Shown piece after piece: positions 3,601 to 23,383 of a DNA stretch of 44,369 bases. The translations under genes were made by a program, and so were the position numbers. This stretch comes from an uncultured Candidatus Saccharibacteria bacterium (GTDB lineage Bacteria; Patescibacteriota; Minisyncoccia; UBA6257; HR35). Below the pieces are notes generated by a model that saw only the letters and a program-made list of their open reading frames with translations, made no database searches and was not told where the DNA came from. The stretch covers positions 1-44,369 of the forward strand of contig CAZZNB010000023.1 in assembly GCA_964655375.1 (NCBI GenBank), in the 5' to 3' direction. The stretch's first letter is position 1; each line of letters opens with the position of its first letter.

Positions 3601-5467
3601 TGAATCTTTTTCTTGGTTCTACTTCTGTACCCATTAAAATTGTAAATAATTGATCTGCTTTTTCTGCATCTTTAATTGTCACTTTTTTAAGTACTCTTTT
3701 TTCAATGTTCATTGTAGTTTCCCATAATTCTTCTGGATTCATTTCTCCTAACCCTTTATATCTTTGAACATCTATATTTTTCTTTTTTTCTTTCTCTAAC
3801 TTTTTTATAATTTCATCTTTCTCTTCGTCTGAATATGCATAATAAATTTCTTTCCCTGCTTGTATTTTATATAGAGGTGGTTGAGCAATATAAACATATC
3901 CTTTTTCAATTAATGGTCTAAAGAATCTATAAAATAAAGTTAAAAGTAATGTTCTAATATGAGAACCATCTGTATCTGCATCAGTAGCAATAATTATTTT
4001 TGAGTATCTTAAGTTATCCAAGTTAAAATCTTTACCAATACCAGTGCCTAGAGCAACAACAAGATCTCTAATTTCTTTAGATTTTAAAATTTTAGACAAA
4101 TTAGCTTTTTCAACATTTAAAATTTTACCTCTCAAAGGCAAAACAGCTTGGTAAACTCTATCTCTGCCCTGCTTAGCACTACCCCCAGCACTATCTCCTT
4201 CTACAATAAAAAGTTCTCTTTTAGAAAAATCTTTGCTTGAGCAATCTGCTAATTTACCGGATAAAGCCAAAGAGACAGATAATCTTTTTTTAAATATATT
4301 CTCTCTCGCTGTTTTTTCTGCCTCTCTAGCTTCTAAATTAACTACTAATCTTTGTAAAATATTTTTTGCTTCATCTGGATTCTTGCCAAAATATTCTTTC
4401 AAAAAATTAAAAGTTTTACTTTCAACAAAGCTTCTTGCTTCAGGATTACCTAATTTTGATTTTGTTTGACCTTCAAACTGTGGTTCTGGGATTTTTAAAG
4501 AGATAATAGCATACAATCCGCCTCTTATATCCTCTGTTATTAAATTTTTGTTGTTTTTTAAAATATTAAATTCTTTACTCAAATCATTAAATATTCTAAC
4601 CAGTCCGTTTCTGAAACCTACAAGATGAGTACCGCCTTCAGGATTTAAAATGTTATTAGTAAAAGCTAATTCTTTAGTTTCTTCATTTTCGACATAATTA
4701 AAAACAAACTCATATTCTTTATCATCTTCTGAGATTTTTCCATAAATATGATAAGGATTTACAAGTTTTTTATTTTTTATAAGATGGCCTAAAAAACTAA
4801 TTAATCCTCCTTCAAAACAAAAACCATAAGCGAAAATCTCTTCTTCTCTCTCATCATAAAAACTTATCTTAAGACCTGGTGTTAAATATGCTTGATGCCT
4901 TAAATATTCTAAAATAAGATCACGGTCAAATTCTATCTCTGCAAAAATTTTAGGATCTGGCTCAAATATAATAGTTGTTCCTGTTTTTTTAGAAGGCCTA
5001 ACTTTTTTTAAGGGAGTTTTCGGTATCCCCCTTTCATATTCTTGTGACCATTCAAAACCATCTCTGTGAACAATAGCTTTTAAATATTTAGACAGAGCAT
5101 TAACAACAGAAAGCCCCACTCCATGTAGTCCTCCAGAAACTTTATATACTTTTTGACTAAATTTCCCTCCAGCATGAAGATAAGTAAGAACAGTTTCTAA
5201 GGCAGATTTTTTTGTTTTAGGATGAATATCAATAGGAATACCACGCCCATCATCTGAAATGGCCACTTTATTATTTTTAAGTAATCTTACTTCTATGTTT
5301 TTTGCATACCCAGCTAAAGCTTCATCTACTGCATTATTAATTATTTCCCATATTAAATGGTGTATACCTTCTTTTCCGGTTCCACCAATATACATTCCAG
5401 GTCTTTTTCTTACAGCTTCTATACCTTCTAAGACTTGAATATGTTCTGCCTTATATTCTGTACTCAT
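3560..5467 (-). CDS. gyrB: DNA gyrase subunit B
   Basis: EAVRKRPGMYIG, NAVDE, GGLHGVG, TOPRIM VEGDSAGG, DADTDG, QRYKGLGEMNPEELWETTM. Confidence 0.98.
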   Translation of the reverse strand: MSTEYKAEHIQVLEGIEAVRKRPGMYIGGTGKEGIHHLIWEIINNAVDEALAGYAKNIEVRLLKNNKVAISDDGRGIPIDIHPKTKKSALETVLTYLHAGGKFSQKVYKVSGGLHGVGLSVVNALSKYLKAIVHRDGFEWSQEYERGIPKTPLKKVRPSKKTGTTIIFEPDPKIFAEIEFDRDLILEYLRHQAYLTPGLKISFYDEREEEIFAYGFCFEGGLISFLGHLIKNKKLVNPYHIYGKISEDDKEYEFVFNYVENEETKELAFTNNILNPEGGTHLVGFRNGLVRIFNDLSKEFNILKNNKNLITEDIRGGLYAIISLKIPEPQFEGQTKSKLGNPEARSFVESKTFNFLKEYFGKNPDEAKNILQRLVVNLEAREAEKTARENIFKKRLSVSLALSGKLADCSSKDFSKRELFIVEGDSAGGSAKQGRDRVYQAVLPLRGKILNVEKANLSKILKSKEIRDLVVALGTGIGKDFNLDNLRYSKIIIATDADTDGSHIRTLLLTLFYRFFRPLIEKGYVYIAQPPLYKIQAGKEIYYAYSDEEKDEIIKKLEKEKKKNIDVQRYKGLGEMNPEELWETTMNIEKRVLKKVTIKDAEKADQLFTILMGTEVEPRKRFIEAYAREVKNLDI

Positions 5468-5470
5468 TTT

Positions 5471-5809
5471 TTAATTTGTTAATCTAATATCTAAAATTTT
5501 ATCCAAACTCCAGCCTGGCCCTGAAGAAATTAATATTATAAAATAAGCTATTAAAGGTAATTTTTCTAATTGAACTTGTTTTTTAACTATACTTCTAGTA
5601 AAATTTGCCATTTCAAAAAACAATAAAATTATAGCTGAAATAGAAGTAAAAAGCCCTAGAGCTAAAGAAGTTGCTAATATAAAAATGAGAGCACTTTTTA
5701 TTTTGTCTAAAGGATAAATTTTATAAGAAAGGTTAAAATAAATAAATGAAATTATTAAACGAGAAAAGAATATTAAATAATCTCCTAAAATCCAAATAAG
5801 CTGTATCAT
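5471..5809 (-). CDS. DoxX-family membrane protein
   Basis: Hydrophobic helices with an early Arg and the C-terminal GPGxxSLD signature (SGPGWSLD). Confidence 0.8.
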   Translation of the reverse strand: MIQLIWILGDYLIFFSRLIISFIYFNLSYKIYPLDKIKSALIFILATSLALGLFTSISAIILLFFEMANFTRSIVKKQVQLEKLPLIAYFIILISSGPGWSLDKILDIRLTN

Positions 5810-6833
5810 GAAAGAAAAAATATATTTTAATGCAATAAATATACTTTATAAACCTTATCAGCTTTCTATATTTAAATTATATCAAAAATTAGGTAGTTTT
5901 GAAAGTGTATTTAACGAATTAAAAATTAAAAATAAATTAGATATTGAAAAAGAATACAAAAAAGTTGAGGATTTAAATATTAAAATAATTACCTATAATG
6001 AGAAAGAGTATCCTATAAAACTAAAAAATATTGATGAGCCACCTTTAGGATTTTATATTTTAGGAAATAAAGATTTATTAAATAATGATAATTTATTCAT
6101 AGCTATTGTAGGAACAAGAAAAGCAACAAATTATGGTTTGAATATATCACAAAAATTTTCAAAAGAATTGGCTAGTTTGGGAATAATTATAGTAAGTGGA
6201 TTAGCTTTTGGCATAGATGAATATGCCCATAAAGGAGCGGTTGAGATTAATGGTAAAACTATTGGAGTTGTAGGAGAAGGTATCGACATAGTATTAAGGT
6301 CTACTAAAAGAAAATTAGTAGAAAAAATATTAGAAAATGGAGGAGCGATTATTTCTGAATATTCTTTATCAACTCCAGCAATGCCTTATCATTTTCCATT
6401 AAGAAACAGAATAATTGCTGGCTTAAGCGATGGTATTACAGTTATAGAAGCTCCGATAGATTCAGGTGCGTTAATCACAGCTAATTATGGATTAAAATAC
6501 GGCAAAGAAATATTTGTTGTTCCAGGAGAAATAACAAATAAAAATTACCAAGGTAGTCATAATTTAATTAAACAAGGAGCAAAACTTATAACAGAAATAG
6601 AAGATATTTTAGTAGAATTTAACTTTGATGTTGATTTAAGAAATAAAATAAAAAAACTAAAACTTTCCCCTAAAGAGGAAATTATTTTTGAAATTTTAGA
6701 AAAAGGTGAAAAAACTATTGAAGAATTAAAAGCAGAAACAAATATACCTATTCAAGAGCTTTTAGTTGTTTTAACAAATATGGAAGTAAAAGGATTAATT
6801 AAAAATAAAGGAGGGAAATTTTTTCTAGCTTAG
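5808..6833 (+). CDS. dprA: DNA-processing protein DprA
   Basis: AIVGTR, VSGLAFGID, FPLRNRIIAGLS, SGALITA, GSHNLIKQGA and a C-terminal winged helix. Confidence 0.97.
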   Translation: MKEKIYFNAINILYKPYQLSIFKLYQKLGSFESVFNELKIKNKLDIEKEYKKVEDLNIKIITYNEKEYPIKLKNIDEPPLGFYILGNKDLLNNDNLFIAIVGTRKATNYGLNISQKFSKELASLGIIIVSGLAFGIDEYAHKGAVEINGKTIGVVGEGIDIVLRSTKRKLVEKILENGGAIISEYSLSTPAMPYHFPLRNRIIAGLSDGITVIEAPIDSGALITANYGLKYGKEIFVVPGEITNKNYQGSHNLIKQGAKLITEIEDILVEFNFDVDLRNKIKKLKLSPKEEIIFEILEKGEKTIEELKAETNIPIQELLVVLTNMEVKGLIKNKGGKFFLA

Positions 6834-9800
6834 TAAATATATAAAGAAATAGTTCCCATATTTTCGTAAGTAAATTCTCTTACTATTTTGAATTTTGTAG
6901 GTTTTGTATATTTTACAGAAATTAAATTACATTCTTTAATGATTTTATCCAAATTTCCTCTTACAATAGATTTTATATTTTTAGAAGCAACAATAGCTAA
7001 ATTAACTTTTTTACTTGGTATTAATTCTAAATCTTGTCTTAAATCTTGAATATTTCTTATAAGATCATTAACAATACCCTCTTCTTTAAGTTCTGGTGTA
7101 ATTACTGGATTTAGCCATATATAAATAGGTTCATCAGTGAATAAATAATTTTCTTTATTTTTAGGCTCTCCTATTATAACTTTTTTGACATTTATTTCAT
7201 CTTTAATAATATCTAAATAATCTTCTTCAATTTTCTCCCCAAGATAAACTTCGCTTAATGGCTGTCTTACTTTTATCTTAGCAGATTTTCTTAAAGCTAA
7301 AATTGCTGAAGTTATATTTTTTATTTTCTTCATTTCTTCTAGTATTTGTTTTTCTTTTGTAGAAATTGGTTTTGGCAAAGTTAATTCTTCTAAATGAACG
7401 CTTAGTTTAGTTTTGAATCTGCTTTGAACTTCGTCTTTTAATTCTTGGTACAAAAATTCACTAAAGAAAGGAGTAAGAGGAGCTGAGATAATAGCAATTT
7501 TATATAAATACTCTTCAAGTTTTAATAAAGCTTCGATTTTTTCTTTTTCATTTTTAGGCCTTTGAAATCTTTTCCTGCTTCTTCTAAGCCACCAACGAGA
7601 TAGATCTTGAATTAAATTCACCAATTCTCTTGATGCTTTTGTTGGATTAAAATTATATAAATTTTCATAAAATATCGAATACATTTCTTTTATTCTAATA
7701 TCAAACCATTTATCTAAAAGATTATTAGAGCTTAAATTTTTGTATTTATTTTTGTTCCTATCATAGTACATTCTATAAAAGTTATATATATTCAAAATAA
7801 GATCAAAATAATTCCTTTTAAGATTTATAAGTTCTTCCTCATTAAACTTCTTATTATCAGCAGATTCGCTTATGTATACAAAATACAATCTTAAAAGATC
7901 CGCTCCGTATTTTTCAATGATTTCTAGGGGATCAATAACATTTCCTAAAGATTTAGACATTTTTTTCCCTTCTTTATCTAAAACTAACCCTGTCACTACA
8001 ACATTTTTGTAAGTTTCCATCTTTTTTATTAAGTATCCAATAACCAACAAAGTATAGAACCATCCTCTAGTTTGATCAACCCCTTCAGCAATAAAATCAA
8101 TAGGGAACAAAATTCCTTCATCTATTTCTTTTTTATTTTCAAAAGGATAGTGTTTTGATGCAAAAGGTGCAGCTCCTGAGTCAAACCATATATCTATTAC
8201 ATCTTCAATCCTTTCTTTTTCGCCCCCACATTTACATCCCCATTTAAACCTATCTACAAAAGGACGATGGACATCAATTTCTCCCTCTTCATTTCTAGGT
8301 AAGACCAAATAATCAATTTCTTTTAATTCTCCAGGAGAAAGACTAAAATCTTCTCTTTCTGCAGTTTGTTTGCGTGAAAGAGCTTGCATTTCTCCAAATA
8401 AAGCCCATAATGGATCTTGGTGAGAAATTATTAAAATCGTTTTACCTTCATATTTCTTTTCTAATTCAAGAATTACTTTTATCATCCTTTTTCTAACTTC
8501 ATCTAAGCTTTCGCCACCCTCAGGTTTTTTGAAATATTGATCGTACTGATCTTTATACAATTTATCATATTCTTTAATTGATTTTCCATTTAAAACCCCG
8601 AAGTCAATTTCTCTTAGATTAAAATCTACATAAACAGGTAAATGAAGGTATTCTTTAATAATATTAGCAGTTTGTCTTGCTCTTAAAAGAGGGGAAGTAA
8701 TTATAAAATCAATATTTAATTTCTGAAGAGTAGGTATAAGATTTTTAATTTGTTTAATACCTTTTTCTGTTAAAGGATTAAAGAAAGTTTCAGGATAAGA
8801 AGAAAGTAGATTTTTTATATTACTCACAGCTTCCCCATGCCTTAAAAATAAATATTTATTATTTGATCTAAAATGTTTAGCTAATTCTTGAAAACTTCCA
8901 ATGATTTCTAAAGATCCACATTTATTACATCTCCATATAGGTAAAGGAATGCCCCACATTCTTGTTCGTGAAAGATTCCAGTCTTTACCTTCTTTTAACC
9001 ATTCATAGAATCTTCCTCTTCCTATTTCTGGAGGATGCCAGTTTATTCTCTTATTTATATTAACTAATTTGTCTTTAAATTTAGAAACTTTAATCACCCA
9101 ATTTTTAGTAGAATAGTATATTAATGGAGTTTTACAACGCCAACAATGAGGATATTCGTGCTGATAACCTTCTAAATTAGCGTATAAAATTAGATTTCTA
9201 TTTTGTAAATCATCTATAATAAACGGATCTGCTTCTTTAAAGAATAAATGATTGATCTTGCTACTAATAAAAGCAGGTTCATCAAAATTAAATCTACCTG
9301 TCTCATCAATAGGATTTATTAATGGTAAATTATATTTTTTGCTTAACTCAAAATCTTCTTCACCAAATGCAGGAGCTATATGCACTATTCCCGTTCCTTC
9401 TTCTTCTTTTACAAAGTCGGCAGGGTAAACTTTATAAGCGTTTTCATAATTTTCAATATTAACAAATTCATAAAGTGGAGTGTATTCTATTCCAATTAAT
9501 TTTTCTCCTTTTATTATTTTAATGACATTCCCTTGGTAATTTGATGGCAATCTTAAACTAATTATTATTTCACCATTTAATTCATAAACCTTGTATTCAA
9601 ATTCAGGATGGATTACTAAAGCTGTGTTAGAAATTAAAGTCCAAGGAGTTGTTGTCCATACTAAAAGATAAACTTCTTTGTTTTCAAACTCTTTTAAGTC
9701 TTCGTTTAATTTCTTAATTTTAAATTTTACATAAACATCTGGATCTAAAACAGTTTTATAAGCATCTACTTGTCCTACTTCAGCTTGAGAAAGCACTGTT

Positions 9801-10348
9801 TCACATCTAGGGCAATAAGGAAAAACTTTATATTCTTCCTTTAATAAACCTAGTTCATAAATTTTTTTAATTATCCACCAGCAACTTTCCATATAAAAAG
9901 GATCATAAGTGATATAAGCATTTTGATGGTCAATCCAAAAACCCATTCTTTCGTCTACATATTCCCAAATATCTTTAAACTTCATTACAAGCTCTTTACA
10001 TTTCTTATTAAAATTTTCTATTCCTAATTGAAAAATTTCTTTTTTATCTTTGATACCTAAAAACTTTTCAGTAGCAACTTCTATAGGTAATCCGTGCGTA
10101 TCCCAACCTGCTTTTCTCTCAGCATATTCACCAATCATTGTTCTAAATCTTAAAATAACATCTTTATAAACTCTTGTTAGAAAATGTCCTATATGAGGTT
10201 TATCATTTGCATACGGAGGACCTTCGAGAAAAACAAATCTTTTATTATTTTTATTTTTTTCTAAGCTTTTTTCAAATATATTATTTGCCTTCCAAAAATT
10301 TATTATTTTTTTTTCTATATTTATCAAGAAATCTTTATTTATTTGCAT
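6830..10348 (-). CDS. ileS: Isoleucyl-tRNA synthetase (type 2-like) with inserted histidine-phosphatase domain
   Basis: [50 protein letters not shown]. Insert carries [21 protein letters not shown] and SHQ. Confidence 0.96.
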
Positions 10349-18006: not shown

Positions 18007-18240
18007 TTATGGAGATATTTTTTTAACTTCTAAGAAAGATAAAATTAAAACAGGAATTGAATAAGAAGCAAAAAGTAAAGCTAAACCTAATAAAATCCAA
18101 GGTAAATTTTTTTTCACTTCATCAATTTTTTTCGTATAAGTCATATAACCTAAATAAATAAAAACGATTGCTGATCCTAAAACTATAAAGATTTGCATTA
18201 TTCTAATTATTTTATGAAGGATGTTTACAATTTCAGTCAT
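18007..18240 (-). CDS. VirB2/TrbC-like pilin (small)
   Basis: Two hydrophobic helices separated by a short basic loop (FIYLG..KK...ILLGLALLFASY), the same pattern as its neighbours. Confidence 0.7.
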   Translation of the reverse strand: MTEIVNILHKIIRIMQIFIVLGSAIVFIYLGYMTYTKKIDEVKKNLPWILLGLALLFASYSIPVLILSFLEVKKISP

Positions 18241-18503
18241 TATTTAAATTTTGGAACAAAAATTTCTATTGTTTTGAAAATAATTTCTCTGTTAAGAATT
18301 ATTATACCTAAAAGTGCTAGACCGAGAATTATAAAAAGAAACGAGATTTTAACATCTTTAAGATTTTTTTTAGCAAAATAAATCTTAACACCTAAATAAA
18401 TTATAAAAAAAACTGCTATTAATAGCGAAAATTTTAATAAAGTTTCTAAAATTCTAGTTGCTATCTCAAGAATTTTCTCAAAGATAGGGAATAATTCAAA
18501 CAT
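18240..18503 (-). CDS. VirB2/TrbC-like pilin (small, divergent)
   Basis: IAVFFIIYLG..K...IILGLALL pattern; 1-nt overlaps with both neighbours. Confidence 0.65.
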   Translation of the reverse strand: MFELFPIFEKILEIATRILETLLKFSLLIAVFFIIYLGVKIYFAKKNLKDVKISFLFIILGLALLGIIILNREIIFKTIEIFVPKFK

Positions 18504-18778
18504 TATTTAAGGAAAGAGAAAATTAAAACAGGAATAGAGAAAGAAGCAATTATTAATGCAATTCCTAAAATAACATACAAAAGTTCGCTATGCCAGTCTT
18601 TACCTTTTGTATACATATATTTTGCTCCAGCATACATAATAAGAACAATTCCTAAGACTAAACTTATCCAATAAAAAGCATTTATTACTCCTATAAATTT
18701 ACAAATAAAATACTCTATACCTTCTTTATTTATACATCCTGTTTCTCCTCTAATTGTCTGAGCTAATACTTTTAACAT
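18503..18778 (-). CDS. VirB2/TrbC-like pilin
   Basis: GIVLIMYAG..Y...ILGIALIIASF, with an N-terminal Cys pair. Confidence 0.75.
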   Translation of the reverse strand: MLKVLAQTIRGETGCINKEGIEYFICKFIGVINAFYWISLVLGIVLIMYAGAKYMYTKGKDWHSELLYVILGIALIIASFSIPVLIFSFLK

Positions 18779-20712
18779 TAAAATCCAAATAAGTCTCTTA
18801 AAATATTTCCTGAGGGGCTATAGAATCTACCTGTTTCTATATCATAAGTAGTATTAAATGGCTGATCTGAAATATTATTGTCATTAACTTTTACTTCTTC
18901 GCAGGCTCCTGTATAATGATAAAGCTCTAAATTTATAAAACCTAAAAGATTATTAGGTAAAGGAAGAGGAATGGGGACATTATAAGGACCTTCTCTATTA
19001 GCTTCATATCTTATTGTAAAAGAAAAATCTCTATTAAATGTAGTATAGCTTATTGCTTTTGTTTTATCAAAAGATAATTGATTAATTCGAATCCCTCTTA
19101 GTCTTCCATAAATAGTACAAGAGCCTGAATTTTGAGGTGATTGGTTATCTACAGTTACATTATAAGTTACATACATTGAAAATGGCGGATCATATAAATT
19201 CCTTTGAATCACAGCAATTCCTAAAATGTTCTCCAAAATACTTTTTAAATCACTTAGATCTTCAATATTTACATAAATTGTTTGCTGCCCAGTAATTTCT
19301 CTAATAGTTAAATCAATTATAGGTTTTTTAATCGTAGGAGGAGTTGTTACGATTTCTCTAGTTCTAATATCTAATTGCCTAACAGAAACTTCACAATTTG
19401 ATGAGTTAAATACTACTCTTACTGTATCACCTAAATCAAAAAGGTCGGATGGTATGTTATAACTGAAAAATTGAGGTGCTGAAATTGAAACAGGACCTTG
19501 AGAGCTTATATTTATTCCTTTTGTTAAGTTATAAAAAGATACAGTTAAATCGCATGGTTTTTCTGCTGAAACAAAAACACTAAATTTTTTATTTTCATCT
19601 ATTTTTGCTGTAGATTGATCTATTATTATTTTAGGAGCAGGAGAAATTGCCACATATTGACCAATTTTTACTATGTAAGAAGGTGGGTTAATCGTACAAA
19701 TTAGATCTCCTGGGGAAAAAGTTAATTCTAATTCTGTAGCTGTAGCAGGAATATTCAAGTTTCTAAATACTTTTTCTATATTTGTTCCAGCAGAAAGTTG
19801 TAAATTATTAGCTATATTATAGTTGTTTCCTGTATCATCTTTCCCTGTTATTGTAATACTACAATAGTTACTACCCTCTTTAGGTTTTATATCAAAAGTT
19901 ATATATAAAGCATCTTCCTGCCTATCAATATAAATTCTTCTTATAGAAATTAAACCTTCTTGAGCTGTCCCAACTGTTTCTCCGACAGTCCCACCTGTTT
20001 GAACTTCTGTTGTTAAACCTCCTGCAAGCCAATTTTCTAAAGCAATTACTATTGTAAATGAAGTTATTCCTACAATTATTCCCAAAATGCCCCAAATAAA
20101 TCTTTGATGAATATTTTTAGCTTCTAATGGTTTAGTTATATAAAGAATACCTGCCCACATCAAAAATATTACTCCTAAAGCTAAAGCACCAAAATATAGT
20201 ATTCTTAAAATCCTATCAAAAAAGAACAAAAGGCATTGACCTACCCCTTTTTCGCAAGGAGATACTCTTGGAAAGGGTCCTCCATATCCAGAAGGAGAGA
20301 TATATATTTTTCTTAAAACCCCACCACTAATGTCTACATTAACCGTTTTCCAATGACAATACTCTATCATTCCTAATGCAGCTAAAGTATCACAGTCCGA
20401 TAAAAGCAAATCTGTAGCTGATTTTATTAAATTTTCCCAGTTTCCATAACTATTTTGAACAGCTTCATTAACATTTTGTCCTGTTTCACTTATAATTGTA
20501 TCTCCTGATACTTTAAATGTAGAAGTATTATAAAATTCATTTAATAATTGAGCCGCTCTTTCTCTTACTTCATTTCTAAAATTTAAATTGTCAATAATCC
20601 TTACTTCCTGAACTGTTTTTATTCCATATTGAAATGGATTAAAAAATTGCTGAGAGAATACAAAGGTTAGAGGAATAATTACAAGAATTAAAATTAAAAA
20701 TTTCTTATTCAT
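18778..20712 (-). CDS. Large pilin-domain protein with beta-rich C-terminal extracellular domains (candidate minor pilin/adhesin)
   Basis: Signal peptide (FVFS-QQ), central pilin unit LGVIFLMWAG...ILGIIVGITSF, then ~400 aa of Ig-like-looking sequence. Confidence 0.7.
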   Translation of the reverse strand: MNKKFLILILVIIPLTFVFSQQFFNPFQYGIKTVQEVRIIDNLNFRNEVRERAAQLLNEFYNTSTFKVSGDTIISETGQNVNEAVQNSYGNWENLIKSATDLLLSDCDTLAALGMIEYCHWKTVNVDISGGVLRKIYISPSGYGGPFPRVSPCEKGVGQCLLFFFDRILRILYFGALALGVIFLMWAGILYITKPLEAKNIHQRFIWGILGIIVGITSFTIVIALENWLAGGLTTEVQTGGTVGETVGTAQEGLISIRRIYIDRQEDALYITFDIKPKEGSNYCSITITGKDDTGNNYNIANNLQLSAGTNIEKVFRNLNIPATATELELTFSPGDLICTINPPSYIVKIGQYVAISPAPKIIIDQSTAKIDENKKFSVFVSAEKPCDLTVSFYNLTKGINISSQGPVSISAPQFFSYNIPSDLFDLGDTVRVVFNSSNCEVSVRQLDIRTREIVTTPPTIKKPIIDLTIREITGQQTIYVNIEDLSDLKSILENILGIAVIQRNLYDPPFSMYVTYNVTVDNQSPQNSGSCTIYGRLRGIRINQLSFDKTKAISYTTFNRDFSFTIRYEANREGPYNVPIPLPLPNNLLGFINLELYHYTGACEEVKVNDNNISDQPFNTTYDIETGRFYSPSGNILRDLFGF

Positions 20713-20713
20713 A

Positions 20714-21358
20714 TTAATGAGTTAAACTATATTCAATTGCCCTTACCAAGCTATAAGATAATATTGTAACTATTGCACCTATTAATGACCATAATACATA
20801 TTGCATACCAGATCTATCACCAGGTTTTGTAATTAAAATAATTCCTCCGTAAATTATAAATCCTATTGCTGAAAGTAAGGAAATTGTATAGATAACAGTT
20901 AGAATTTTCTGGGCTAGCCATAATAGGCATTTACCAAGTAAACCTTGAGGGATAGACTGCCCTCTTAAAATGTCAAAAATATTATATGGAGTGCATACCC
21001 TACCTGGCTGAAATTTTAGTTGTTGAGCATAAGCTATATTTATTAGCCCAATAGCGCCTTTTGAAACTATATTTTCAATTAAAACTACCAAAGAATAAGA
21101 AATTATAGCTATTACTAAGCCTATTACTCCCCAAATTAAAATGTTTTTAACTTCATCAGCTTTTTTATAACTACCAATTAACATTATTCCTGCCCACATA
21201 AACATAATAACTGCTAATGCTCCAGAAATCCATGTTAATACTTTTAAAGCTACATCAAAAATTAATAATAAACAAGAAATAAAATCTTGACATACAATAG
21301 GAACAGGGGGGGTTAATTTACTTGGTAACCCAAAAAACGGATTAAAGGGATATGCCAT
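20714..21358 (-). CDS. Tandem double VirB2/TrbC-like pilin
   Basis: Two complete pilin units (AVIMFMWAG...IGLVIAIISY and AIGFIIYGG...IGAIVTILSY) joined by NIAYAQQ. Confidence 0.8.
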   Translation of the reverse strand: MAYPFNPFFGLPSKLTPPVPIVCQDFISCLLLIFDVALKVLTWISGALAVIMFMWAGIMLIGSYKKADEVKNILIWGVIGLVIAIISYSLVVLIENIVSKGAIGLINIAYAQQLKFQPGRVCTPYNIFDILRGQSIPQGLLGKCLLWLAQKILTVIYTISLLSAIGFIIYGGIILITKPGDRSGMQYVLWSLIGAIVTILSYSLVRAIEYSLTH

Positions 21359-21400
21359 CTAAAATTTACTGTTTAAAAATTTATCATTATGATCCTAATA

Positions 21401-21775
21401 TTAGCCTCCTAATCCTCCTGTTGTTACAATTGTATGAATTACAGTAACAAGGGCGTAAGAAATTAAAGCTATAACAAGACCTATAACTCCATATATTAAT
21501 CTTGTTTTACCTTCATCAATTTTTCCTTGAAATATTACATTAATACCACCCCAAATAATAAAAAGAACCGCCGCAGCAGCTGCTACCCATGTTAAAATTC
21601 TAAATAACCATTCAAAAATATTAAAAATAACATCTCTAACAGTTTGTTGCCCGGTAAATTGAGTTGTTACTACTGGTTCTACAATTGGTGGCTGCTGCTG
21701 TCCTAATGTAAAATTAAACAAACTAAATATTGTAAATAAAGCGACCAAATATATTAAATTTTTACTTATTTTCAT
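21401..21775 (-). CDS. VirB2/TrbC-like pilin (probable major pilin)
   Basis: Signal peptide ending FTLG-QQQ; AVLFIIWGG...K..IYGVIGLVIALISY; first gene of the array. Confidence 0.85.
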   Translation of the reverse strand: MKISKNLIYLVALFTIFSLFNFTLGQQQPPIVEPVVTTQFTGQQTVRDVIFNIFEWLFRILTWVAAAAAVLFIIWGGINVIFQGKIDEGKTRLIYGVIGLVIALISYALVTVIHTIVTTGGLGG

Positions 21776-21883: not shown

Positions 21884-23383
21884 ATGTATTCGAAAATATA
21901 TTCTGCCATTTTAGATGGATTAGAAGGTAAAATTATAGAAGTAGAAACTGGTTTATTGCCAGGATTAACAGCTTTTTTAATAGTTGGATTAGGAGATAAA
22001 GCTGTACAAGAAGCAAAAGAAAGAATTAATTTAGCTTTAAAATCCATAAATGCTAAACCGCCTTTTAAATTTAATAGAAAAACAATAGTAAATTTAGCCC
22101 CTGCTGATATTAAAAAAGAAGGTTCTAATTTAGATTTAGCAATAGCTATAAGTTTTTTAATCGCCTCTAAACAAATTTCACCTATTAAAAAGAAAGTTTT
22201 ATTTTTAGGAGAACTTTCTTTAGAAGGAAAATTAAGAAAAATTAGAGGAGCCTTGCCTATTATTTTAAGTTTATATAAAGAATTTGAGGAAATTTATTTA
22301 CCAGCAGAAAATTATCCAGAAATTAAATATTTAAAAATTGATAATTTATATCTTTTTGAGAATTTAAAAGAAATTATAAGTCATATAGAAAAAACAAAAG
22401 TTAAAGAAAGATTTAAAGGAGAAAATTTTATTAAAAAAGAAAAGGATTTAGACTTAGATTTTATAAAAATTTCAGATTATATATTAAGAGCTATAACTAT
22501 AGCCTCAGCAGGAAGACATAATTTAATTTTATATGGACCACCGGGAACAGGAAAAACATTAATTGCAAAAAATATTGTTAATCTATTACCTGAATTATCT
22601 TATGAAGAAGCTTTAGAAGTAACAAGTATTTATAGCTGTGCAAATGAATTAAAAGAGGGATTTATAACCTCTCCGCCATTTAGAAATCCTCATCATAGTT
22701 CTTCTTCTGTAGCTATTTTAGGTGGAGGACAAAGTCCAAAACCTGGTGAGGTAAGTTTAGCACATAGAGGAATTTTATTTTTGGATGAATTACCAGAATT
22801 TAAAAGGGATGTCTTAGAAGGATTAAGAGAGCCTATGGAAAATGGTGAAATAACTATATCTCGAAGCAAAAAAACTATCAAAATGCCTGCTAAATTTATG
22901 TTGATAGGAGCTTATAATCCTTGTCCTTGTGGTTTTTATTTGGATCCAGAAAAAGAATGCAAATGTACTATTGCTGAAATTAAAAAATATCATAAAAAAT
23001 TATCTGGCCCGATTATAGATAGAATTGATATAAAAATAAATGTGCCAAGAATTAAAGGAGGGGAGCTTTTCTTGGAGAGCATTAGAAATTATAAAGATAT
23101 AGTTGAAAAAATAGATGAGCTTAAAGAATTACAGTTTAAAAGGCAAAATAAATTTAATAGCGAATTAAGCCCTAAAGAAATTAAAGAATATTGTAAACTT
23201 TCCTTAAAAGCTGAAATTTTTTTAAAAAAATCAATTGATAATTTAAGATTATCTTTAAGAGCAGTACATAAAATAATAAAAACAGCTAAAACTATTTCTG
23301 ATTTTGAAAACAAAGATATTATTGATTTAGAGCATATAGCTGAAGCTTTACAATATAGGAATGTAGAGGAAGATGGATTATAA
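21884..23383 (+). CDS. comM: YifB/ComM-family Mg-chelatase-like AAA+ ATPase
   Basis: IVGLGDKAVQEAKER, NLAPAD.KKEG..LDLAIA, GPPGTGKT, PFRNPHH, PGEVSLAHRGILFLDELPEF, NPCPCG, SGPIIDRID. Confidence 0.95.
   Translation: MYSKIYSAILDGLEGKIIEVETGLLPGLTAFLIVGLGDKAVQEAKERINLALKSINAKPPFKFNRKTIVNLAPADIKKEGSNLDLAIAISFLIASKQISPIKKKVLFLGELSLEGKLRKIRGALPIILSLYKEFEEIYLPAENYPEIKYLKIDNLYLFENLKEIISHIEKTKVKERFKGENFIKKEKDLDLDFIKISDYILRAITIASAGRHNLILYGPPGTGKTLIAKNIVNLLPELSYEEALEVTSIYSCANELKEGFITSPPFRNPHHSSSSVAILGGGQSPKPGEVSLAHRGILFLDELPEFKRDVLEGLREPMENGEITISRSKKTIKMPAKFMLIGAYNPCPCGFYLDPEKECKCTIAEIKKYHKKLSGPIIDRIDIKINVPRIKGGELFLESIRNYKDIVEKIDELKELQFKRQNKFNSELSPKEIKEYCKLSLKAEIFLKKSIDNLRLSLRAVHKIIKTAKTISDFENKDIIDLEHIAEALQYRNVEEDGL

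Follow-up and report, generated by a model that had tools for sequence, protein, structure and literature searches.

The literature on type IV secretion systems (T4SS) of Patescibacteria describes, in the passages concerned with pilins, 441 arrays of 2–11 pilin genes (PMC12102498 / 10.1101/2025.01.22.634366; PMC10633639; PMC12857230). A pilin array was found to be essential for the epibiotic life of Ca. Southlakia epibionticum, the one species tested (Wang et al. 2023, PMC10633639). A pilin gene is reported near virB4 in only 1,135 of 1,948 assemblies (Quinonero-Coronel et al. 2025, PMC12102498), and a review states that filament assembly has been shown for no member of the pilin family PF18895; its text treats it as open whether a bacterium with one membrane makes a VirB2-type filament out of several divergent pilins at all and, if so, by what means (PMC12857230). 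The pilins F TraA, Ti VirB2 and RP4 TrbC are described in the source cited as small two-helix membrane proteins with precursors cut by host LepB; maturation of TrbC involves LepB, an unknown host protease and the LepB-like TraF in that order, and removes first 27 and then 4 C-terminal residues, the last step being that of TraF (PMC13434634). The gene considered here, p214, lies on the minus strand at 20714–21358 of a 44,369-nucleotide (nt) contig, C23, the whole of which is called the window below. The evidence leans towards p214 encoding a polyprotein of two different VirB2-like (PF18895) pilins, which signal peptidase I would cut at an internal site.

The window belongs to the genome of an ultra-small hot-spring Patescibacteria (716 kb in 46 contigs, 99.3 % complete), and its G+C content is 26.5 %. 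By protein and by locus, the nearest named relatives are Minisyncoccia, Paceibacter and Patescibacteria group bacteria.

The two-unit gene and its junction

The gene and its parts, in the order in which they are translated, are as follows.

20714–21358, minus strand: p214, two-unit VirB2-like pilin gene, proposed to encode a pilin polyprotein; open reading frame (ORF) of 214 amino acids (aa), PF18895 at 34.7 bits in two stretches, fused orthologues at 18 of 19 loci
21272–21358, minus strand: N-terminal tail of unit 1 (residues 1–29) with C23 and C29, without signal peptide; read from the sequence, orthologues beginning at the same M-x-YPFN
21062–21283, minus strand: helical hairpin of unit 1 (residues 26–99), its loop SYKKADEVKN predicted to be cytoplasmic; AlphaFold2, PF18895 at residues 39–91
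21020–21040, minus strand: junction motif N107-I-A-Y-A111/Q112-Q113; proposed cut between codons 21026–21028 (Ala) and 21023–21025 (Gln)
20927–21025, minus strand: N-terminal module of unit 2 (residues 112–144) with C122 and C144, where mature pilin 2 is proposed to begin; matched in the alignment by the mature N-terminus encoded by the free-standing unit 2 gene of locus L006
20720–20941, minus strand: helical hairpin of unit 2 (residues 140–213); AlphaFold2 helices, PF18895 at 18.1 bits

The frame of p214 is the longest possible, with the first start codon after a stop being used, and this start point is common to all close orthologues. The N-terminus reads MAYPFNPFFGLPS.. (MAYPFNPFFG..) and shows no hydrophobic core behind a charged start; helix 1 of the hairpin is the earliest long hydrophobic stretch. 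An earlier reading of this DNA, made from the letters alone and called the sequence-only reading here, had stated that the ORF has no N-terminal signal peptide, and the N-terminal sequence bears this out. In the linker the frame runs through ..SKGAIGLINIAYA-QQLKFQPGRVC.. with zero stops; the region following the unit 1 helices is ..ENIVSKGAIGLINIAYA-QQLKFQPGRVC.., and the codons for N107 to Q113 were confirmed base by base at 21020–21040.

Against the Pfam family T4SS_pilin (PF18895) the protein exceeds the cut-off of 26.6 bits, and two hydrophobic helices with a short charged loop (SYKKADEVKN in unit 1, TKPGDRSGMQ in unit 2) are present in both units. A six-frame search of the genome with the same profile gave 29.7 bits for residues 39–91 and 18.1 bits for approximately residues 148–207, the latter alone being below the cut-off. 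Direct BLASTP comparison of the two units aligned only a 21-residue stretch of helix 2 (52 % identity, E 2e-5), and because so little of the halves aligns, units 1 and 2 are taken, on this sequence comparison, to be old and diverged paralogues. AlphaFold2, run on an alignment of 31 sequences (mean predicted local distance difference test, pLDDT, 71.8; predicted template modelling score, pTM, 0.46), placed helices at residues 26–62 and 64–99 and at residues 140–177 and 182–213, forming two hairpins; residues 102–121, which include the junction, are coil with pLDDT <50. The two units that the sequence-only reading had described, each a Cys pair plus a hairpin, joined by GAIGLINIAYA-QQLKF in one stop-free frame, are confirmed.

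The cut-off of PF04956 (TrbC/VirB2), 27.9 bits, was reached neither by p214 (14.8 bits) nor by the neighbouring genes (15.8–21.9 bits), and unit 1 of p214 does not have the N-terminal signal peptide of canonical TrbC/VirB2 pilins. Foldseek returned zero matches to the AlphaFold2 model in the PDB at E <= 0.001, simple helical hairpins being hard to match, and a profile search of PDB sequences with a wide alignment gave chance-level matches only (E >= 0.35).

Contigs from four runs span 20714–21358 with zero indels and with identical junction codons; of these, X1 and X3 may be the source data of the window, and X5 and X6 look like one data set filed twice. The X5/X6 contig represents a second strain, which differs by 15 substitutions over 20614–21641, none of them in the junction codons. 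A stop codon between the units, which the sequence-only reading had said would tell against it, occurs in none of the contigs of the four runs. Since these contigs are free of indels and the same frame is found at 18 syntenic loci, the open fused frame of p214 is real and no assembly slip.

Conservation of the junction and match to signal peptides

A word-indexed search found 13 relatives of p214, comprising 11 two-unit proteins (214–227 aa), one two-unit protein with an insert (P0011) and one protein (P0013, 133 aa) that is unit 2 alone with a signal peptide of its own. The insert of P0011, approximately 140 aa, immediately follows the junction, which there reads A-Y-G/E. Scans of genome and metagenome contigs yielded 19 loci with the same operon. 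The sequence-only reading had proposed seeing whether orthologues are fused or split: the gene is fused at 18 of the 19, all 18 with the junction N-[IF]-[AV]-Y-A-Q-[QA], and split at one, L006. In 13 orthologues N107 is invariant and Y110, A111 and Q112 are conserved at 90 % or more, with variable flanks; C23 and C29 are invariant or nearly so, and C122 and C144 are invariant, in the orthologues and in the two-unit alignment.

L006 encodes the two units in separate genes that share one reading frame, with products of 109 aa for unit 1 and 133 aa for unit 2. The first ends ..ATGNIG and is followed by TGA, AAA and the ATG of the second; it aligns to residues 3–104 of p214 (E 4e-28), and the unit 2 gene aligns to residues 107–214 (E 4e-47). 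The latter begins with a full signal peptide, the end of which, N-Y-L-Y-A/Q, falls in the alignment on N-I-A-Y-A/Q of p214. What p214 is missing relative to the split form is, by this alignment, precisely three things: the stop codon, and the charged start and hydrophobic core of the signal peptide; the cleavage region is retained.

A tree of unit 2, its rows chosen by hand (29 fused, 4 single, 4 outgroup), nests single forms with a signal peptide among fused ones at three places, with supports of 99/93, 99/86 and 95/87, and its starred branches require at least three changes between fused and split. The sequence-only reading had offered, as its alternative, a recent fusion that kept a signal remnant. 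That alternative is rejected: the fusion is old, being shared by 18 of the 19 syntenic loci and by relatives with as little as 24 % identity, in which the motif persists although the former signal peptide has lost its hydrophobic core.

The motif was followed further in 31 two-unit relatives (24–86 % identity to p214) selected by eye from the better matches that span both units; P0011, P0039 (three units, A-A-Y-A/A twice) and the motif-free P0035 were left out. Position −1 is Ala in 31/31, position −3 is A, V, S, I or L in 31/31 and position +1 is Gln in 25/31. A111 is one of only nine invariant columns in an alignment whose columns average 24 % identity. Between helix 2 and the site lie 13 to 79 residues (median 21). 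In p214 itself the site is adjoined by a 10-residue patch, AIGLINIAYA, and helix 2, following KKADEVK, is a possible core some 16 residues upstream.

An exhaustive search of cluster representatives gave 210 matches, the best 150 of which were examined. Unit counts in 162 proteins, made with a custom unit hidden Markov model (HMM) built from hand-chosen hairpins, were one in 94, two in 59, three in 8 and eight in 1; this set includes p214 and its close orthologues and is biased by the two-unit query. Two junction types were distinguished by eye. The first has a long linker that bears a short hydrophobic patch with [AVSIL]-x-A/[QADE], and the unit that follows has its first Cys 10–28 residues further on; the second has short, motif-free linkers of 1–20 residues. 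P0039 carries two junctions of the first type between its three units. P0035, a protein of 820 aa, consists of eight successive pilin-like hairpins (16 predicted helices) with linkers that contain no cleavage-like motif.

Comparison with the genome's own signal peptides was made on 99 N-termini with a charged start and a hydrophobic core, with type IV pilin leaders and the pilin operon left out. In 26 of the 99, [ASG]Q occurs shortly after the core, against 10.6 % of random internal 30-mers (p = 1e-5). Typical ends are NISYA/Q, NFIFA/Q, NITFA/Q and NLVKA/Q, with Asn at −5 as in N-I-A-Y-A/Q. Across the genome Gln makes up just 2.5 % of residues, yet [A/S]/Q ends are frequent, and so is Asn at −5. 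This composition suggests that mature secreted proteins of the genome usually start with Gln, possibly as pyroglutamate.

A position-specific scoring matrix was built from the 26 sites, without the pilin operon, these training sites being predicted and not verified. With positions −1 and +1 removed, the junction obtains 2.78, the leave-one-out median of the training sites being 1.39, and only 14 of the 690 internal [ASG]Q sites of the proteome reach 2.78. When all positions of the matrix are used, nowhere in p214 scores as high as position 112 (11.8, the next being 6.8). The junction has a small or aliphatic residue at −3 (Ala109) and a small one at −1 (Ala111), as signal peptidase would require, in a context resembling the genome's predicted cleavage sites. 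A profile search found one S26 signal peptidase gene in the genome, on contig C42 (150.6 bits), the product of which contains GESMEP. Three other approaches to the site contributed nothing: an unsupervised expectation-maximization motif search of the signal-peptide-like N-termini recovered the hydrophobic core and not the cleavage site; a first −3/−1 site rule picked sites inside the core and was dropped; and a generic signal-peptidase regular expression, accepting 63 of 81 junctions, was too permissive and was discarded as evidence.

Lys and Arg are dense in the two short loops of p214 and sparse in the N-terminal tail and the linker, and Cys pairs flank the junction. On account of this charge distribution and of the Cys pairs on either side, the junction would lie on the outer face of the membrane. 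The proposed course of events is that p214 inserts with its N-terminus outside, as charge distribution and Cys pairs suggest, and with the KK-rich loop of the unit 1 hairpin inside; helix 2 would then carry the linker across the membrane, leaving the junction and the Cys-pair module of unit 2 outside. There the single S26 type I signal peptidase would cut after Ala111 (N-I-A-Y-A/Q-Q), for which the motif, its conservation, the homology of the site to that of the split form and the enzyme are in evidence, and the cut itself is a prediction. The products would be pilin 1 (residues 1–111) and pilin 2 (residues 112–214, starting with Gln), in equal amounts per translation product. Of the former signal peptide of pilin 2 only the cleavage region would thus be left, export having passed to helix 2 of pilin 1.

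Several features are in keeping with such processing. A short conserved motif in a flexible linker, as modelled here, is what would be expected of a processing site. Gln is preferred at +1, as it is in the secreted proteins of the genome, which would fit a new N-terminus, possibly pyroglutamate. The shortness of the hydrophobic patch would fit selection against a full-length core, since unit 2 would be turned over by another membrane-spanning segment behind helix 2. The claim of the sequence-only reading that one product is cut at AYA/QQ into two pilins in a 1:1 ratio is partly upheld: the site behaves like a signal-peptidase site in its conservation among the 31 relatives, its positional homology with L006, its match to the genome context and its place in a coil predicted to lie on the outer side, and the gene probably yields two pilins; the cut and the ratio keep the status of predictions.

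The pilin operon and its secretion system

Six pilin genes (p124, p214, p644, p91, p87 and p77) lie head to tail on the minus strand at 18007–21775. Those besides p214 are as follows.

21401–21775, minus strand: p124, upstream single-unit pilin with a signal peptide ending ..FTLG/QQQ; PF18895 at 30.8 bits (cut-off 26.6), the conserved first gene of the operon
18778–20712, minus strand: p644, large pilin with a signal peptide ending ..FVFS/QQ, an N-domain, one hairpin (approximately residues 160–230) and a C-terminal domain of approximately 400 aa
18007–18778, minus strand: p91, p87 and p77, three small single-hairpin pilin-like genes with overlapping or abutting starts and stops; sub-threshold TrbC and T4SS_pilin matches

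Apart from p124 and p214, the genes of the operon give only sub-threshold matches to T4SS_pilin or TrbC/VirB2. p91, p87 and p77 have one unit each by the custom unit HMM, and their gene order is conserved. The predicted mature starts that the sequence-only reading had compared with the junction are all present in the neighbours, as ..FTLG/QQQ in p124, ..FVFS/QQ in p644 and MLKVLA/Q in p91. Read-through from p124 into p214 was considered and rejected; the two share a frame, yet are separated by three stop codons.

Orthologues of p644 (515–657 aa) follow the two-unit gene, or the split pair of L006, at 16 of 19 loci, the sequences of L004, L009 and L015 ending at the two-unit gene and a 279-aa frame in L003 running into masked sequence. 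In L005 and L006 the large pilin gene occupies 4964–6616 and 4718–6265, respectively. The N-domain of p644 begins QQFFNPFQYGIK, and the length of the C-terminal domain varies among orthologues. A weak match to a carbohydrate-binding module was obtained (CBM_4_9, E 0.048), and p644 may be a tip or adhesin subunit.

The p91-type genes start with a six-residue leader that ends like a cleavage site directly before the Cys pair (MLKVLA/Q, MLEVFA/Q, MISLVFA/Q, MFNFTFA/Q). The ATG of p91 (start 18778, minus strand) overlaps the stop codon of the large pilin gene (TAATG). The short leader is also found in L005 (6613), L006 (6275) and L007–L019, and the p91-type ORF in L003, L016, L020 and L021 starts later, without the short leader part. 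The leader of p91 has the look of a junction left from an earlier fusion to the large pilin. A frameshift joining p644 and p91 was rejected as a candidate, TAATG being an ordinary stop–start overlap and no slippery site into the p91 frame being seen.

The operon is flanked by housekeeping genes, encoding a ComM/Mg-chelatase-like ATPase, phosphoglycerate kinase, a cysteine desulfurase-like aminotransferase and a Mur ligase. Two genes of the window are linked to natural transformation, dprA (5808–6833) and the ComM/Mg-chelatase-like gene (21884–23383); the latter is a conserved divergent neighbour of the pilin operon, in L005 and L006 too. Elsewhere in the window (6830–10348, minus strand) a 1172-aa class I aminoacyl-tRNA synthetase (tRNA-synt_1, 395 bits) has a complete His_Phos_1 domain (130.7 bits, residues 500–661) inserted in the middle of its catalytic domain.

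The core of the T4SS is located on a separate contig, C45 (L022, G000:C45:8000-27000), and includes a 599-aa VirB4-like ATPase (P-loop_TraG, 84.9 bits), a 174-aa weak PrgI/VirB3-like protein and a 340-aa protein with an N-terminal pilin hairpin. Two large ORFs at this locus, of 826 and 1102 aa, have no family match. A profile search of the genome for VirB6/TrbL (PF04610) gave no match, the genome being 99.3 % complete. The pilin array and a VirB4-type T4SS are thus in one genome, the array not adjacent to virB4, and p214 is assigned, by its profile matches, to the pilin array of a Patescibacteria T4SS.

Alternatives and known systems

Several points weigh against cleavage of p214, which we infer from sequence alone. 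Helix 2 ends some 16 residues before the site, a gap that exceeds the usual cleavage region (c-region) of a signal peptide, and the uncharged stretch before the site in the 31 relatives (median 11 residues, range 3–27) is too short to span the membrane. The selection of those relatives by eye favours sequences that bear the motif. The matrix trained on this genome (G000) scores 6 bits or more at just 17 of 72 junctions of multi-unit representatives, 12 of these 17 being matched by no more than 1 % of 200 shuffles; it is specific to the genome, and clear A-Y-A/Q sites of relatives with higher G+C score poorly with it. Among the single forms, the others being P0014, P0064 and P0070, the split gene context is verified for L006 only. 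Additionally, the p91-type genes keep M-L-[EK]-V-[FL]-A-Q at the extreme N-terminus without any hydrophobic core (h-region), and the motif might for that reason have a role other than recognition by signal peptidase.

The main rival takes p214 as an uncleaved, covalent double pilin, a hetero-dimer of four helices that serves as a double subunit of the pilus or stays in the membrane, its motif being an anchor at the membrane interface, a contact between subunits or something else. This is possible and is given clearly less credence than cleavage by signal peptidase. Multi-hairpin relatives without the motif are common (59 two-unit, 8 three-unit and 1 eight-unit among the 162, with many linkers of 1–20 residues), and since such concatenated hairpins exist, P0035 among them, an uncleaved multi-hairpin protein is viable in this family. 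Likewise, p644 shows that long extensions after a hairpin are tolerated, no membrane-spanning h-region directly precedes the site, and the p91-type N-termini carry the same short motif without one. Set against this, the conserved positions −3, −1 and +1 are the determinants of signal peptidase I, and the split orthologue has them in the part that is removed. The motif lies in coil with pLDDT <50 and not in a packed element, and its distance from helix 2 (13–79 residues), together with the insert of approximately 140 aa that adjoins it in P0011, argues against a fixed structural tether. The three or more switches between split and fused forms would also be easier if the end products were identical. 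If p214 is uncut, a conserved motif in an unstructured linker still needs explaining.

Two products might also arise by another route, although this is improbable. A different protease could act near the motif, of the TraF type or an unknown one of the host, in the manner of the C-terminal trimming of TrbC; or translation could start internally, for instance at Met59, helix 2 then serving as a VirB2-style leader removed at AYA/QQ. Residues 59–111 would make a plausible leader, with a charged start (KKADEVK), a hydrophobic core and an AYA end, and VirB2-class pilins are described as undergoing C-terminal trimming and cyclisation by dedicated S26-like peptidases (PMC13434634). The S26 profile search yields a single gene, however, with no dedicated TraF-like peptidase evident, and the motif agrees with how the signal peptides of unrelated secreted proteins of the genome generally end. 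It is very improbable that a recent fusion left the junction as a neutral remnant, or that the fused frame is an artefact of assembly or annotation: L006 shows that one stop-codon change could join both frames, but the frame is fused at 18 of 19 loci in different assemblies, the contigs of the second strain carry 15 substitutions and zero indels, and relatives down to 24 % identity retain the motif while neighbouring linker residues vary.

A wider form of the polyprotein reading is evenly balanced between holding and failing. It proposes that widespread VirB2-like pilins of Patescibacteria are two- or three-unit polyproteins, in which helix 2 exports the next pilin and a retained A-x-A/Q is cut by the general signal peptidase. 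The products would be different pilins in obligate equal amounts for a hetero-polymeric T4SS filament, and switching between fused and separate genes would take place via gain or loss of the hydrophobic core of the signal peptide only.

If p214 is such a polyprotein, at least two pilins would be needed together and in equal amounts, and the mature ends of both would be defined. Pilin maturation would become open to simple testing in organisms that are difficult to cultivate, and p214 would be a clear natural case in which a signal peptide has dwindled to its cleavage region after export passed to an upstream helix. Full-text literature searches for pilin polyproteins and for fused or tandem VirB2 in Patescibacteria returned nothing on such proteins; we know of no pilin among the membrane polyproteins cut internally by signal peptidase, and p214 would in that case be, to our knowledge, the first pilin polyprotein.

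Comparison with known systems shows likeness and difference at each level. With the VirB2-like arrays of Patescibacteria p214 shares membership of PF18895, a setting of tandem divergent pilin genes, an ultra-small genome and a VirB4-like ATPase, the array and virB4 being on different contigs here. It differs from these arrays as described, in which the genes are separate, by having two units per frame, an internal junction resembling a signal-peptidase site and switching between split and fused forms; supplementary tables of those studies might list two-domain proteins. Like TraA, VirB2 and TrbC as portrayed in the cited source, which are two-helix pilins cut by LepB and for which further trimming on the outer face is normal maturation, p214 would be matured by cleavage outside. 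In those pilins one gene encodes one pilin, with an N-terminal signal peptide and a C-terminal piece that is discarded, whereas in p214 the cut would release another whole pilin on its C-terminal side, and unit 1 is without a signal peptide.

Internal cuts by signal peptidase occur in the structural polyproteins of flaviviruses and in FbcH, the cytochrome b-c1 precursor of Bradyrhizobium, and the procoat of M13 is a hairpin substrate of the enzyme. In these cases, as proposed for p214, a small-x-small site is exposed on the outer face by a helix that crosses the membrane outward, and what follows the site becomes a separate membrane protein. Unlike them, where the helix ends a few residues before the site, p214 has some 16 residues and a short hydrophobic patch between the two.

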